From the IMG/VR virus record IMGVR_UViG_3300030125_000009: a DNA stretch of 14,358 nucleotides; one strand, written 5' to 3'. This DNA is from a virus. Lineage: Duplodnaviria; Heunggongvirae; Uroviricota; Caudoviricetes. The position numbers and the translations under genes were made by a program. Shown piece after piece: positions 1,523 through 7,414 of this stretch. How positions within the stretch are numbered: the first letter of the stretch is position 1; each line of letters opens with the position of its first letter. Under the pieces are notes generated by a model, which did no database searches, was not told where the DNA came from, and saw only the letters and a list, made by a program, of their open reading frames with translations.

Positions 1523-2083
1523 TTAGTGCATGATGTTTGCCATCTCATAGGCGTCAGCCAGCAATTCCATCTCTGACTTGTTCAGCAAGGTGAATTCTTT
1601 CTTGCCTCCAACCACACCATCGGCATGAACGGGGACCAGCCAGGGGTATTTTTCTCTTACTTCAGCCGGTGCTGCATGCTAGTGGTGCCATCTACAAAGG
1701 GGCAATTGCTTTTTGTGACAACCCGGCGCGGTACGACCGGAGATATGGTGCAGAGACACCTCTTCAGATATTACTCCATGCATGTAGCAGGCAATGCAGG
1801 GGAGAGCGCCAAGAGCATTGGCGATGCTCCGTTCCTCCGCTGTCGGTGTTCGCCCCTTCAAGCCACGAGATTTTATCTTTACCGCACTTTTCCGCGTTTT
1901 GCTGGCTGGTGGGCGCTCTTTCTGTTTAGCGATACGACGGTCGATAGAATCCCGCATTTTCTGATATTGCGATTCTCGCCAGGCGGGGTCAGCCAACTTT
2001 TCCCGTTGCCGAGCGATCGCTCGTTCTCTGGCTGCCTTCTGCCACTCGCGGCGCTGTTCAAGTTTTTGTTCGATTGTTTTCAT
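1523..2083 (-). pseudogene. ref: ref (P1 recombination enhancement function, HNH-type nuclease) interrupted by in-frame TAG amber codon at 1681-1679; truncated product 134 aa, full frame 186 codons
   Basis: Translation from ATG 2083 gives MKTIEQKLEQRREWQKAARERAIARQ...CHKKQLPLCRWHH, then TAG, then the same frame continues HAAPAEVREKYPWLVPVHADGVVGGKKEFTLLNKSEMELLADAYEMANIMH to TAA at 1525-1523. The 186-codon total matches the P1 Ref length I recall. Confidence 0.75.
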
Positions 2084-2174: not shown

Positions 2175-2198
2175 ATTATAGCAATCAATTAGAGCAAT
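2175..2198 (-). promoter_or_regulatory. C1 operator (Op2-like, 14/17 match to ATTGCTCTAATAAATTT) overlapping a perfect TATAAT -10 element upstream of ref
   Basis: Minus strand ATTGCTCTAATTGATTG at 2198-2182 followed by GCTATAATTTAG (TATAAT at 2180-2175); a second weaker overlapping operator-like copy ATTGCTATAATTTAGCC. Confidence 0.65.
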
Positions 2199-2304
2199 GG
2201 TAGATATTTTGTTTCTCGCGAATCACATTTTTTCACTTCAGTACCTGTGTGCTATACTCCTTCTTGATTGATTGGATGCGGAATACAAACCCGCTCTTTT
2301 GTGC

Positions 2305-2332
2305 AGCCTGGCTCCTTGCCAGGCTTTTTTTT
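2305..2332 (+). terminator. Rho-independent terminator on the plus strand (8-bp stem agcctggc/gccaggct, loop tcctt, T8 run)
   Basis: Hairpin and T-run seen directly; on the minus strand it is preceded by an A-run, so it is unidirectional for plus-strand transcripts. No convincing plus-strand gene lies upstream. Confidence 0.6.
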
Positions 2333-2692: not shown

Positions 2693-3724
2693 CTAATTGC
2701 CATCTTCCAGCAGGCGCACCATTGCCCCTGTTTCACTATCCAGGTTACGGATATAGTTCATGACAATATTTACGTTGGTCCAGCCACCAGCTTGCATGAT
2801 CTCCGGTATTGAAACTCCGGCACGGGCCATATCTCGCGCGGCTCCGACACGGGCACTGTGTCCAGACCAGGCCAGGTACCTCTGTCCAGAGTCATCCTTA
2901 GCCCCGTAAATCAATCGGTGAGTTGCTTCAAAAATCCCTTCTAGGGCGCGAGTTGATAGCTGGCTGGTGGGTGATGGCGAGGCAACACCATTTTTTCTGA
3001 CCCGGCAAAACAGGTAGTTATTCGGATCATCAGCCACACCAGAGACAGAAATCCATCGTTCGACCAGTTTAGTTACCCCCAGGCTAAGTGCCTTCTCTAC
3101 ACCTGCGGTGCTAACCAGCGTTTTCGTTCTGCCAATATGGATTAACATTCTCCCACCGTCAGTACGTGAGATATCTTTAACCCTGATCCTGGCAATTTCG
3201 GCTATACGTAACAGGGTGTTATAAGCAATCCCCAGAAATGCCAGATTACGTATATCCTGGCAGCGATCGCTATTTTCCATGAGTGAACGAACCTGGTCGA
3301 AATCAGTGCGTTCGAACGCTAGTGCCTGTTTTGCACGTTCACCGGCATCAACGTTTTCTTTTCGGATCCGCCGCATAACCAGTGAAACAGCATTGCTATC
3401 ACTTGGTCGCTGCAGCCCGGACCGACGATGAAGCATGTTTAGCTGGCCCAAATGTTGCTGGATAGTTTTTACTGCCAGACCGCGCGCCTGAAGATATAGA
3501 AGATAATCGCGAACATCTTCAGGTTCTGCGGGAAACCATTTCCGGTTATTCAACTTGCACCATGCCGCCCACGACCGGCAAACGGACAGAAGCATTTTCC
3601 AGGTATGCTCAGAAAACGCCTGGCGATCCCTGAACATGTCCATCAGGTTCTTGCGAACCTCATCACTCGTTGCATCGACCGGCAATGCAGGCAAATTTTG
3701 GTGTACGGTCAGTAAATTGGACAT
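2693..3724 (-). CDS. cre: Cre site-specific tyrosine recombinase, 343 aa (variant)
   Basis: Translation MSNLLTVHQNLPALPVDATSDEVRKNLMDMFRDRQAFSEHTWKMLLSVCRSWAAWCKLNNRKWFPAEPEDVRDYLLYLQARGLAVKTIQQH... is Cre. It differs from the canonical Cre I remember at three positions (GVASPSPTSQ versus GVAAPSATSQ; C-terminal GN versus GD). Confidence 0.97.
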   Translation of the reverse strand: MSNLLTVHQNLPALPVDATSDEVRKNLMDMFRDRQAFSEHTWKMLLSVCRSWAAWCKLNNRKWFPAEPEDVRDYLLYLQARGLAVKTIQQHLGQLNMLHRRSGLQRPSDSNAVSLVMRRIRKENVDAGERAKQALAFERTDFDQVRSLMENSDRCQDIRNLAFLGIAYNTLLRIAEIARIRVKDISRTDGGRMLIHIGRTKTLVSTAGVEKALSLGVTKLVERWISVSGVADDPNNYLFCRVRKNGVASPSPTSQLSTRALEGIFEATHRLIYGAKDDSGQRYLAWSGHSARVGAARDMARAGVSIPEIMQAGGWTNVNIVMNYIRNLDSETGAMVRLLEDGN

Positions 3725-3731
3725 TTGACAC

Positions 3732-3953
3732 TCAGATAATGGTTTTAAGTAAAGTGTACAGGATCGGCTCTGCCTTTACCTGTTTATGGTTCTCGTCATA
3801 GAAACGCCAACGACCGCGACTGCGTTCTATCTTTTCTTCACCGCGCGATAATGACAGTTGACAACTATCACGATCAAACCCTTTTGCCCGCCAGTAACCA
3901 CGATTTTTCTCAAGCTCAAGATGAGTGGACACTTTAGCAGCTGAATATCCCAT
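3732..3953 (-). CDS. Hypothetical small basic protein, 73 aa, immediately upstream of cre (stop 7 nt before the cre ATG)
   Basis: ATG at 3953 preceded by AGAGGTGAAAA (good Shine-Dalgarno); product MGYSAAKVSTHLELEKNRGYWRAKGFDRDSCQLSLSRGEEKIERSRGRWRFYDENHKQVKAEPILYTLLKTII is rich in R/K. No homolog recognised from memory. Confidence 0.5.
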   Translation of the reverse strand: MGYSAAKVSTHLELEKNRGYWRAKGFDRDSCQLSLSRGEEKIERSRGRWRFYDENHKQVKAEPILYTLLKTII

Positions 3954-4142
3954 TTTTCACCTCTGATTGATTGGTGGTGCTAAGTGCGCTACGCGAAATC
4001 TGGAGCACTAACACTGCCAACATTTCGCAGATTTTACGTAGCGCAACCTTGATCAAATGATCAAGTGATCACTATTTGACCTGATAAGGTATTGAGCTGT
4101 ATGGATTTACAGGTAAATTGATCATGTTCAATAACCCTTAAG

Positions 4143-5761: not shown

Positions 5762-6628
5762 TTATTCAGCCGCCACCGGTTTTAACAAGCCAGCATCGAG
5801 CAGTTTACGCGTCAACCACTGCTGGCCTTTACCCGTTAATTGAGGCGTCAACCGTATCTGGTAGCCATCTTCATCATCCAGCACCACTTCTTTCACCGTG
5901 AAATACCCCGCGTTGATGTACTGCTGGAACGGCACATTTTTACGTCCACCGGACGCTATCAGGATGCCGTTCTCCCGTAACCAGACAAACAGCGCGTTTT
6001 GCTTAAGTCCAACAACCTTTGCAAAATTCCCAATCAGGATCCCTTTAGCTACTGATACCCGGTCGGCAAAATCGACTTTAGGAGCGGCGGCCACCAGCTG
6101 CTGATTTAGCTGGTGGGCTTTCTGTTCCAGAAGCTGCTTTTGTTCAGCCAGTTCGGCAGCCAGGCGCAGAGCTTCTGGAAGCGTCTGGGGGATTGCAACC
6201 GGTTGCTGTTCTTTTTGCCGGAAGTAGCTGTCTTCCAGTTTTTCAAAGAATGCCCATGCCTGATCGGTTTCGAGCATTTTAGCGTGGCGGGCTGCGCCGC
6301 GTTCCGTCCAGAGGATGAGTGAGCGGGCTTTAGGAGAGATAGGATTTTGTGAGTTACTTAAAGTCACCCGCAAATTGTTCAAATCATCTCCAATAACTTT
6401 ATAGAAATGCTTGCCTTCACAAAAACGTTCAGCATTACGGGAAAAGTTCTTCTTGATGTTATCCGCATCTGTCCCATACCCCTTAGCAAGGATCTTAGTT
6501 GTCACTACACGCACTCCCTGCCACTCTAGAACGGGAATTTCATCCGGCTGACTTTGAACAACCACCAGTTCTGATTCCTGAACTAAAGGTGTATTAATTT
6601 TTTCAGATTTAACGTTAGTAGCTTTCAT
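5762..6628 (-). CDS. ant2: Ant2, 288 aa, in-frame internal initiation product of the ant ORF
   Basis: Internal ATG at 6628 (MKATNVKSEK...) has its own strong Shine-Dalgarno AAGGAGG 8 nt upstream, in the same frame as ant1; this mirrors the P1 ant1/ant2 arrangement. Confidence 0.6.
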   Translation of the reverse strand: MKATNVKSEKINTPLVQESELVVVQSQPDEIPVLEWQGVRVVTTKILAKGYGTDADNIKKNFSRNAERFCEGKHFYKVIGDDLNNLRVTLSNSQNPISPKARSLILWTERGAARHAKMLETDQAWAFFEKLEDSYFRQKEQQPVAIPQTLPEALRLAAELAEQKQLLEQKAHQLNQQLVAAAPKVDFADRVSVAKGILIGNFAKVVGLKQNALFVWLRENGILIASGGRKNVPFQQYINAGYFTVKEVVLDDEDGYQIRLTPQLTGKGQQWLTRKLLDAGLLKPVAAE

Positions 6629-6877
6629 TCTGTGTGCCTCCTTGCGTGTTTCGGCTGCGACGGTTGCGTAATTCAGATGCCCCTGTTCGAGCAGGTATTC
6701 ACGGATATCAGACAGCAGGATACGGTGAACAGCGTTCTTGTCCTTTCTCCGGTAAAGTTGTTTGGTGATCATGAAGTAGTTGGCAATAACGCCAGGTATA
6801 TCCCTGGTACTGATACAGGCAGAGTGCTGTTCAATTGCCTCGATCATCTCTTCACGGGTAACTAACGATGTTCTCAT
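5762..6877 (-). CDS. ant1: Antirepressor Ant1, 371 aa (ORF6N/KilA-N-like N-terminal region plus Ant C-terminal domain); a second in-frame start gives Ant2
   Basis: ATG at 6877 preceded by AGGAGGG; the icd stop overlaps it (ATGA). Antirepressor-family domain assignment is from memory of the family, not from a search. Confidence 0.8.
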   Translation of the reverse strand: MRTSLVTREEMIEAIEQHSACISTRDIPGVIANYFMITKQLYRRKDKNAVHRILLSDIREYLLEQGHLNYATVAAETRKEAHRMKATNVKSEKINTPLVQESELVVVQSQPDEIPVLEWQGVRVVTTKILAKGYGTDADNIKKNFSRNAERFCEGKHFYKVIGDDLNNLRVTLSNSQNPISPKARSLILWTERGAARHAKMLETDQAWAFFEKLEDSYFRQKEQQPVAIPQTLPEALRLAAELAEQKQLLEQKAHQLNQQLVAAAPKVDFADRVSVAKGILIGNFAKVVGLKQNALFVWLRENGILIASGGRKNVPFQQYINAGYFTVKEVVLDDEDGYQIRLTPQLTGKGQQWLTRKLLDAGLLKPVAAE

Positions 6878-7095
6878 AGTCCCTCCTGAGCAGAAGCGTT
6901 AACAGGGAGGCACCAGTAACTGAGAGAATTGCGTGAATCAGTGGAAAAACGGGCAGAGAAAATACATGGGGCGTCAGGAAGCTGAGAGCGGGCCTCATCT
7001 TCTGTCGGTGCAATAACGAAGTGATAGTGACGTTTTTGGCAGGAGTAAAAGCGCCAGATAAATTCAGGATGAGTTGGGGTAGGGATAGTAGCCAT
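6874..7095 (-). CDS. icd: Icd-like protein (interference with cell division), 73 aa, translationally coupled to ant1
   Basis: ATG at 7095 preceded by AAGGAGG; product MATIPTPTHPEFIWRFYSCQKRHYHFVIAPTEDEARSQLPDAPCIFSARFSTDSRNSLSYWCLPVNASAQEGL; TGA stop overlaps the ant1 ATG; 73 codons equals the P1 icd length as I recall. Confidence 0.7.
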   Translation of the reverse strand: MATIPTPTHPEFIWRFYSCQKRHYHFVIAPTEDEARSQLPDAPCIFSARFSTDSRNSLSYWCLPVNASAQEGL

Positions 7096-7151
7096 ATTGG
7101 CAGCCTCCTTAGACGTTGGTATGTAACCACCGCAGAAGAGACCAATCTTGC

Positions 7152-7231
7152 TGGCGGTGGACTGTACGGAGTTGGCCTTACTGGCGTCCAAGGTAACCAG
7201 CCTACCCGAAGGTAGCCCCATACAGCCCACC
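7152..7231 (-). ncRNA. c4: Candidate c4-like antisense repressor RNA (about 80 nt, tRNA-like terminal stem, 3' GCCA)
   Basis: On the minus strand, GGUGGGCUGUAU pairs with GUACAGUCCACC as a 12-bp terminal stem, followed by GCCA; internal 5-bp hairpin with UUCG loop; the segment CCUUGGACG is complementary (9 bp, one G-U) to CGUCUAAGG, which overlaps the icd ribosome-binding site. Boundaries are approximate. Confidence 0.45.
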
Positions 7232-7260
7232 ATTGTAGAGGTGTGCGTGTACGCCGATAC

Positions 7261-7283
7261 AAAAAAAAGACGCGAGCGGCGTC
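7261..7283 (-). terminator. Rho-independent terminator downstream of pacB (hairpin GACGC-CGCUC-GCGUC plus U8)
   Basis: Hairpin followed by an 8-U run on the minus strand, about 150 nt after the pacB stop. Confidence 0.6.
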
Positions 7284-7414
7284 TGTATCGCCTTAGACTT
7301 AAGCGGGAGGCCAATCCCGGCACCCGTTTTAATGAGGTGCCTGATAAGCATAAACCGAAAATGCCTCAAGGCGCAAGAGGTCAGGTTCAATGTAACATCG
7401 GCAGTTAAAAAACA

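Follow-up and report, generated by a model that had tools for sequence, protein, structure and literature searches.

A stretch of 14,358 nucleotides (nt) from the IMG/VR virus record IMGVR_UViG_3300030125_000009, called here the window, belongs to a P1-type phage-plasmid and runs opposite to the P1 map; its minus-strand genes mat, ref, c8, cre, and cra are 94 to 98% identical to those of P1, P7, SJ46, and RCS47. On the plus strand of the c8-ref intergenic region, we found a compact promoter-to-terminator unit that probably encodes an undescribed, stand-alone, trans-acting small RNA (sRNA) of ~67 nt with a small phage regulon, common to P1-family phage-plasmids. A fuller proposal, to which we give an even chance, is that P1, among the most intensively studied of phages, and its many relatives encode an unrecognized and probably constitutive trans-acting sRNA, that its single 10-nt seed controls cra-cre-c8 (and with it Cre/lox), the morphogenesis gene pmgS, small open reading frames (ORFs) for membrane peptides, and, in some lineages, ref, and that RNA and targets have coevolved. 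Sequence features, conservation, structural covariation, site enrichment, and RNA-target covariation are observed directly; from them, we infer that the RNA is produced, where it starts, and in which direction it would regulate.

A conserved promoter-to-terminator unit convergent with c8

The unit opens with TGTGcTATACT, which at the level of sequence has the makeup of a sigma-70 extended −10 promoter with a start ~7 nt downstream. A −10-like TATACT was part of the original prediction; the hexamer is present, as the core of an extended −10 element, one base to the right of the position given at the time (2252 to 2257). The plus-strand terminator with an 8-bp stem that had been proposed at the other end was confirmed both by a terminator scan and by a census with strict criteria. 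Its stem (AGCCTGGC/GCCAGGCT) comprises 8 bp, including 6 G-C pairs, closes a TCCTT loop, and is followed by T7-8, as expected of a plus-strand intrinsic terminator, and the stem pairing is kept across lineages. The U-tract shares 2 nt with the c8 stop codon (2331 to 2333). On the minus strand, the hairpin is followed by GCACAAAAGAG and the scan reports no terminator; because the minus strand has no U-tract, the hairpin is not a conventional c8 terminator. The original statement that no convincing plus-strand gene lies upstream of the terminator was borne out in this window, where the sole long plus-strand ORF (2272 to 2763) reads through the T-run, a stretch of 5 to 9 T residues depending on the relative.

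Such a combination of signals is rare. Strong terminators by the strict criteria number three on both strands of the 14-kilobase (kb) window, against a mean of 0.07 in Markov resamples, and extended −10 boxes number only two, this candidate and the known P2ref element TGCTATAAT on the minus strand, both in the c8-ref intergenic region. For a strong extended −10 box with a strong terminator 30 to 200 nt downstream, the expectation is 0.017 per window, and two were observed, namely, the RNA unit and the known P2ref-to-attenuator unit; both boxes have a GC-rich hairpin plus T8 within ~90 nt. The idea that one unit arose as an inverted duplication of the other (P2ref to attenuator) was rejected, as pairwise alignment and a repeat search found no homology beyond the T-run.

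The predicted RNA folds with −23.2 kcal/mol (z = −3.4). In all lineages, 7 nt separate the −10 box from the seed; since this discriminator/spacer varies while the sequence from G2266 onward is fixed, we take G2266 as the probable transcription start and the seed as the probable 5′ end of the RNA. Two specialized classes of P1 promoter were considered and rejected. A late (Lpa-dependent) promoter should have a −22 box, but none is present: LPmat has AAGTGACTT where the candidate has AGTACCTGT at the same position. As for a C1-repressed promoter, a search with the 17-bp operator ATTGCTCTAATAAATTT (up to 3 mismatches) finds Oref and nothing over 2230 to 2265, and the best alignment by eye of the candidate promoter with the operator consensus matches at 9/17 positions. 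Because no C1 operator overlaps it, the promoter is probably active in lysogens. The only features suggestive of a possible Hfq-dependent sRNA are a UUUU stretch ahead of the terminator hairpin and six or more U residues in the tail.

We collected 92 P1-type relatives (77 distinct sequences), made up of P1, P7, PLSDB plasmids, and 80 IMG/VR contigs, the last anchored on the C8 protein only. Across the 77 distinct relatives, no other part of the region varies as little as the block from promoter to terminator. Nucleotide diversity (π) falls sharply from 2248 to ~2380, with values of 0.02 in the RNA body and 0.009 in the hairpin, compared with 0.12 to 0.15 in the ref promoter region, 0.16 in the c8-cre spacer, and 0.17 at c8 third codon positions. 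The block from 2248 to 2259 is invariant, as is the seed from 2266 to 2274 (77/77), and G2275 differs in one sequence. Among the 55 distinct sequences of the ref type, 7 of 85 core positions (2248 to 2332) segregate, as opposed to 55/164 in the left intergenic part, 26/50 in the c8-cre spacer, and 57/103 c8 third positions (Fisher P values from 5e-6 to 2e-12 for the core versus these regions). The −35-like hexamer TTTTCA behaves differently: it varies among P1-type relatives (π = 0.077), is replaced outright in two plasmids (L040 and L094), is not conserved in the JK004-like lineages described below, and is probably dispensable. In the same two plasmids, rearrangement breakpoints fall at the equivalent of 2242/2243, just upstream of the extended −10 box, and the unit is kept. 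The core was found only in P1-type elements and always at the c8 3′ end (697 plasmids and 18 phage records), and it is present in 615 of 5,426 complete Escherichia coli genomes. In the Escherichia albertii plasmid pESA138_1 (L007), IS200C is inserted directly after the T-run; c8 is removed there and the RNA unit is kept.

Low diversity continues into the last ~15 codons of c8 (2334 to 2380, ~47 nt), which are as little diverse as the RNA block (4/15 third positions segregating versus 53/88 elsewhere in the gene; P = 0.02). We found no explanation for this, and c8 is not adjacent to the RNA in the JK004-like elements.

The RNA would run away from ref, beginning ~63 nt upstream of the P2ref −35 region; it is divergent from the ref promoters and convergent with c8 and overlaps only the c8 stop codon, so that the original wording “antisense to the ref promoter region” is inaccurate. 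In 71 of 94 P1-type loci, ref occupies the neighboring position; a plus-strand KilAC gene, ending 162 nt upstream of the RNA core, replaces it in 17, and 6 have neither. The unit is also not tied to ref, being kept where ref is missing at this position (KilAC loci; gene_57 in JK004). Because JK004 has no ref adjoining the unit, the RNA goes with the cre-c8 module and not with ref.

Searches for more-distant homologs extended the comparison. In a homology search, C8 appears as an ORFan of P1-type elements, with all matches at least 78% identical, and a scan of genome contigs for distant C8 relatives gave 3 loci only. A Cre search, in contrast, found Cronobacter phage JK004 (Cre 79% and C8 51% identical), which led on to five Salmonella plasmids and three IMG/VR contigs. 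A homologous unit is present in all of these JK004-like elements. It lies on the opposite strand from cre/c8, directly adjoins the upstream gene at its stop codon, and has the order TGTGaTATACT, 7 nt, an identical GATTGATTGG, hairpin 1, GUGC, terminator hairpin, and U-rich tail. The promoter sequence TGTGaTATACT is shared by JK004, the related element L098, and the Salmonella lineage, and the ten seed bases are identical in the three JK004-like versions of the RNA. Hairpin 1 keeps its position, but its sequence is unrelated among P1-type elements, JK004/L098, and the Salmonella lineage. Each element has exactly one match to a covariance model built from these sequences. Phage D6, whose Dre is 41% identical to Cre, has no cra, c8, seed, or convergent unit, and the model finds no RNA in it.

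Relative to the window, one U-A pair of the terminator stem has become C-G by a double change in the diverged elements, and one G-C pair has become G·U. Changes to G·U fit the plus strand only, as they would be A·C mismatches on the minus strand, and the same holds for three one-sided stem changes within P1-type sequences. One-sided stem changes leave 7 nonpairing cells on the plus strand versus 39 on the minus strand; in JK004, the minus-strand fold is disrupted and a 52-amino-acid (aa) gene lies between c8 and the hairpin. In a structure-aware (model-based) alignment, pairing holds in 95.8% of cells, and compensatory changes occur in 3 pairs. Covariation scores 0.156, compared with 0.092 ± 0.011 in shuffles (0/500) and at most 0.065 with slid partners. 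These compensatory pairs, from three lineages only, support but do not prove a structured noncoding RNA. Of the two elements whose conservation in relatives had been singled out as informative by the original prediction, the hairpin is kept and the 24-codon ORF is not.

Seed-complement sites and predicted targets

If transcribed as proposed, the RNA would begin with an unpaired seed of 10 nt (GAUUGAUUGG) and continue through hairpin 1 and the U-rich linker to the terminator hairpin with its U tail. Exact copies of the seed complement, CCAATCAATC, occur 5 times in the whole P1 genome (0.33 expected), 6 times in JK004 (0.25 expected), and 4 times in the Salmonella plasmid pCFSAN058588 (0.28 expected), counting in each case the copy opposite the RNA gene itself; the motif is 10- to 20-fold overrepresented in all three. 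When we slid a window along each RNA, the excess of complementary sites was confined to the seed in the three genomes. Of the non-self sites, 11/12 are on the sense strand, and nearly all lie just upstream of, or just inside, translation starts.

Within the window and P1, the seed-complement search gave an 11-nt match (3974 to 3964) just upstream of cra. In JK004 and the Salmonella lineage, the corresponding leader has diverged and precedes a different first gene (a 356-aa or 68-aa ORF), yet CCAATCAATC is kept as an island 11 to 26 nt before the first start codon. This cre-operon leader site is one of two found in P1, JK004, and Salmonella; the other lies at positions +21 to +30 of pmgS, as identical C-CAA-TCA-ATC codons among different flanking codons. 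Both are thus orthologous across lineages, with the same bases amid diverged flanks. Further sites precede a small hydrophobic ORF that follows pap (P1 and JK004) and an “MKDF” ORF (JK004 and Salmonella), and others lie directly before the ATG of a ref homolog (JK004 and L098). The P1 version of the small ORF, between pap and pmgT, encodes 28 hydrophobic residues (MNTAFKIIMAAIYFWLFSITFGGIVAHG) behind a strong AGGAG Shine-Dalgarno (SD) sequence, is unannotated (L104 positions 40655 to 40741; OP279344 positions 80655 to 80741), and is preceded by a seed-complement site; it has a counterpart in JK004.

The bases 5′ of the site core covary with RNA positions 11 to 13. Position 11 of the JK004 RNA is C and faces G in 5/5 JK004 targets; the UUU of the Salmonella RNA faces AAA in two of its three targets and GAA in the third. 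The P1 targets match neither pattern. With its own targets, the JK004 RNA forms 2.4 additional contiguous pairs; with targets from the other two lineages, it forms no additional pairs. A near-invariant seed, enriched sense-strand sites, and covarying flanks together point to a trans-acting, base-pairing sRNA whose regulatory effect is predicted. Of the two options originally offered for this locus, that of a small regulatory RNA is therefore strongly supported by comparative evidence, and the seed and predicted targets make it more specific. A search for pairing between the RNA and the ref leader revealed no complementary stretch. A second sequence, ACAAAAGAGC, complementary to the 3′ arm of hairpin 1 plus the linker, has 5 extra copies in P1 (L095/L104, six places); we rejected it as a motif and regard it as probably due to chance, as its copies all fall inside coding regions and follow no pattern, two of them belong to the duplicated U/U′ genes, and it is not enriched in JK004 or the Salmonella plasmid.

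We propose the following model. RNA polymerase would start at the extended −10 box, probably also in lysogens, and stop at the intrinsic terminator abutting the c8 stop codon. The seed of the resulting RNA would pair with CCAAUCAAUC sites in phage messenger RNAs (mRNAs) at or near translation starts. In this window, the predicted target is the leader of the cra-cre-c8 operon, beside the cra SD sequence; other P1-type targets would be pmgS and the small hydrophobic ORF that follows pap, joined in relatives by ref and a further small ORF. Pairing would most likely block ribosome binding or destabilize the mRNA, so that target genes are damped. In lysogens, the RNA would damp leaky expression of lytic or late functions and would determine how much Cra and Cre the long P3cre transcript yields. 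More speculatively, the clear-plaque locus “c8,” which has been assigned only tentatively to the neighboring ORF, might reflect this RNA.

Points against the small RNA and rival explanations

Several points weigh against a trans-acting sRNA. The case for the RNA is wholly computational. Its structural support comes from three lineages, with few independent events, and no covariation is seen within P1-type sequences, because their divergence is too low. The length of the 11-nt match is not significant alone (77/100 shuffles reach at least 11 nt in 128 kb), and conservation of the cra site within P1-type elements is uninformative, since the whole leader is conserved there. At three of four sites, the P1-type RNA pairs through the 10-nt core alone, with 11 nt at the fourth. 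One P1 site is antisense to dbn and has no evident start codon; the one in pmgS lies beyond the usual window for blocking initiation. Finally, the seed was picked after its conservation was known, which makes the enrichment test partly post hoc.

Alternatively, the RNA may be real but act only in cis, with convergent transcription or RNase III cleavage of the duplex insulating the next gene from the constitutive cre-c8 operon and CCAATCAATC sites elsewhere irrelevant. We consider this unlikely. In its favor, with no U-tract behind the hairpin on the minus strand, c8 transcripts should read through, and the unit always stands at the 3′ end of the cre-c8 module, whatever gene follows (ref in P1, gene_57 in JK004). 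A gene to be shielded is at hand in ref, a lytic gene that is harmful in lysogens (PMC4713147), and P53as provides a P1 precedent for an antisense RNA. Overlap with read-through cre-c8 transcripts is plausible; overlap with annotated features amounts to only 2 nt of the c8 stop codon. However, action in cis fails to explain why the first 10 nt are invariant across lineages while hairpin 1 has been replaced, and it accounts for neither the excess of seed complements at translation starts nor the covariation of target flanks. The two modes can also coexist: the RNA is perfectly complementary to cre-c8 read-through transcripts and may insulate in cis in addition to the proposed action in trans. 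A different account of the repeated motif makes CCAATCAATC a protein recognition element, bound by a DNA-binding regulator or an mRNA-binding translational factor, with promoter and terminator incidental. All copies, including the one in the RNA gene, do have the same orientation relative to local transcription, and most upstream-type sites continue with A and then an SD sequence a few bases on, suggestive of a shared translation-start cassette. We nevertheless judge this improbable: it leaves unexplained the invariant extended −10 box, the terminator, the hairpin covariation, and the G·U pairs that fit the plus strand only; lineage-specific covariation with positions 11 to 13 of an RNA from the opposite strand is not expected of a protein site; and the nonpalindromic motif occurs in transcribed leaders or within coding sequence, not in promoters.

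The remaining explanations dispense with a regulatory RNA. The hairpin might be a plain terminator beside a chance promoter, keeping plus-strand transcription of the variable region from running antisense into c8 and cre. Consistent with this, in 17/94 relatives the hairpin is the first plus-strand intrinsic terminator after the KilAC antirepressor gene; however, 71/94 relatives (among them this window and P1) and all JK004-like elements have no upstream plus-strand gene, the extended −10 box and seed are more conserved than the terminator loop, and in L040 and L094 the unit has survived rearrangements that break the sequence immediately ahead of the −10 box. On these grounds, the chance of a plain terminator seems small. 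The hairpin could instead belong to the minus strand, as a terminator or 3′-stabilizing stem-loop of c8 mRNA; it does directly follow the c8 stop codon, and in P1-type sequences its minus-strand fold is as good as that of the plus strand. What follows it is GCACAAAAGAG and no U-tract, and the strand bias of nonpairing cells and the situation in JK004, where the fold is disrupted and a gene intervenes, make a minus-strand role very improbable. Hardly credible, finally, is the original alternative of a small membrane peptide, with the terminator ending its mRNA. The hydrophobic 24-codon ORF exists and translates as described, without a Shine-Dalgarno sequence. Its ATG is lost in 16 of the 77 distinct relatives through changes at G2199, 4-nt deletions at 2200 to 2203 shift the frame within the first codons, and the ORF is absent from the JK004-like lineages. 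The body lies in the most variable part of the region (π, ~0.12 to 0.18) and shows no coding pattern. We therefore rejected it as a gene and continue to favor a trans-acting sRNA.

Genomic setting, novelty, and comparison with known systems

Coordinates of the unit and of other features in the window are collected in Table 1.

Table 1. Positions of the predicted RNA unit, its window target, and other features (window coordinates)
Feature	Position	Strand	Remarks
−35-like hexamer TTTTCA	2230-2235	plus	17-bp spacer to −10
Extended −10 promoter TGTGcTATACT	2248-2258	plus	TG at 2250-2251, hexamer TATACT at 2253-2258
Predicted small RNA, ~67 nt	2266-2332	plus	complement(1828..1894) of P1 AF234172; end in T-run
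Seed GAUUGAUUGG	2266-2275	plus	predicted unpaired 5′ end of RNA
Hairpin 1 (GGAuGCGG / CCGCUCU)	2274-2297	plus	
U-rich linker UUUGUGC	2298-2304	plus	GUGC conserved across lineages
Intrinsic terminator	2305-2332	plus	hairpin 2305-2325, U-tract 2326-2332
Predicted target CCAAUCAAUC, cra-cre leader	3965-3974	minus	−21 to −12 from cra AUG (3953), adjoining SD GAGGUG (3958-3963)
Micro-ORF MVDILFLANHIFSLQYLCAILLLD	2197-2271	plus	ORF present, rejected as gene
P2ref promoter with C1 operator Oref (2182-2198)	2175-2203	minus	P1 annotation mapped plus operator match; back to back with RNA promoter
c8	2331-2642	minus	103 aa; convergent neighbor of RNA unit
cre	2693-3724	minus	
cra	3732-3953	minus	
C4 antisense RNA	7150-7237	minus	Rfam, 75.9 bits
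isrK-like RNA	7263-7340	minus	
KilAC-type antirepressor ORF	5762-6877	minus	371 aa

Several observations concern the neighborhood of the unit. The ref gene (1520 to 2083, minus) has an in-frame TAG at codon 135 (1679 to 1681), where P1 reads WHHQHAAP and this element WHH*HAAP; the stop truncates the HNH nuclease domain, and ref is probably a pseudogene or an amber allele here. Its leader (2085 to 2180, minus) forms a mirror image of the RNA unit, with the P2ref extended −10 box TGCTATAAT and an attenuator hairpin plus T8 at 2114 to 2089, just before the ref ATG. An alternative antiterminator pairing joins 2109 to 2125 with 2155 to 2171, ref has no obvious SD sequence, and the leader gives a weak Rfam suhB/mmgR match. 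An H-NS site, CGATAAA, has been reported in the P1 ref regulatory region (PMC4713147). In the window, it reads CGAGAAA (2212 to 2218), and the C at 2215 is found in only 6/77 relatives. Upstream of c8 (2659 to 2675, minus), P1 has a perfect extended −10 box, TGCTATAAT, 25 nt before the c8 start, where the window has TGCTCTAAT; the stretch then reads ATTGCTCTAATTTTTTG and, with 4 mismatches to the consensus, resembles a C1 operator half-site more closely. In the curated record, Pc8 is annotated at another position. The last of the three strong terminator-like hairpins (1348 to 1373, minus) is formed by AAGCCGCC...GGTGGCTT, has a tail rich in T, and falls within mat, ~70 nt into the coding sequence. 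Between pacB and c1, at 5762 to 7340 (minus), is an extra immunity-I-like module with an isrK-like RNA, a C4 RNA, and an antirepressor ORF; P1 has no such genes there. The C-terminal 232 aa of the ORF are 87% identical to the KilAC gene that replaces ref in 17/94 relatives. Lastly, a Salmonella P1-like plasmid with a homolog of the RNA encodes a ProQ/FinO-family protein (L108 positions 41602 to 42132; NZ_CP077703.1 positions 84602 to 85132), possibly a plasmid-borne RNA chaperone.

The curated P1 record AF234172 annotates P1ref, P2ref, and the C1 operator Oref in the c8-ref region. Its sigma-70 promoter annotation is very thorough and includes the antisense promoter PaskilA, with the mapped start of the P53as antisense RNA; despite this, the record has no feature on the window plus strand at the c8-ref site. 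The absence of a terminator feature is uninformative, because the record annotates zero terminators across its first 50 kb. For P1/P7, a 2025 review of phage small RNAs lists no RNA other than C4 (PMC12197685), and the RNA is not mentioned in a P1vir/hfq transcriptome preprint (bioRxiv 10.64898/2025.12.28.696737). The searchable full-text literature, queried also with the hairpin sequence, contained no description; Lobocka et al. (2004) or Windle et al. (1988) might tabulate the hairpin. Rfam 15, including the C4, c4-a1b1, and isrK families, gave no family match to the RNA region. A subthreshold match to SorX (RF02784; 2257 to 2331, plus; 22.6 bits, E = 0.11, gathering score 46.6) reflects the generic shape of a hairpin plus terminator, SorX being an alphaproteobacterial RNA.

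P1 is a classic model phage, the source of Cre/lox and a standard transducing phage, and P1-type phage-plasmids, which often bear resistance genes, are found in ~11% of complete E. coli genomes. If the sRNA is confirmed, a second conserved P1 sRNA would add a posttranscriptional layer to lysogeny and lytic control, and native Cre expression would appear to be regulated by RNA. The analysis also shows how a conserved seed, combined with counts of its complement across whole genomes, can bring a phage sRNA regulon to light independently of expression data.

Among known systems, the C4 antisense RNA of P1/P7 (immI; RF01695) is similar in being a small RNA of the same phage family that represses a phage gene by means of short (7- to 8-nt) complementary elements around a ribosome-binding site and helps to keep lytic functions silent. 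Unlike the predicted RNA, however, C4 is cut from the transcript that carries its target and has no promoter-terminator unit of its own; the RNA described here would have a different, multigene regulon, and the two share no sequence or model similarity. P53as (from PaskilA) is likewise a short transcript from a promoter convergent with a P1 operon, but it overlaps the kilA 5′ end and acts in cis, whereas the predicted RNA overlaps a stop codon only and has dispersed short sites. The architecture fits that of enterobacterial 5′-seed sRNAs such as RybB and OmrA/B and of prophage sRNAs such as DicF and IsrK, which combine a 5′ seed, an internal hairpin, a U-rich stretch, a terminator, and a long U tail and which act on targets at or near ribosome-binding sites, with several targets per seed. 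The predicted RNA matches this design but differs in having no Rfam homology and in that its predicted targets, from a search of phage genomes, are phage genes.

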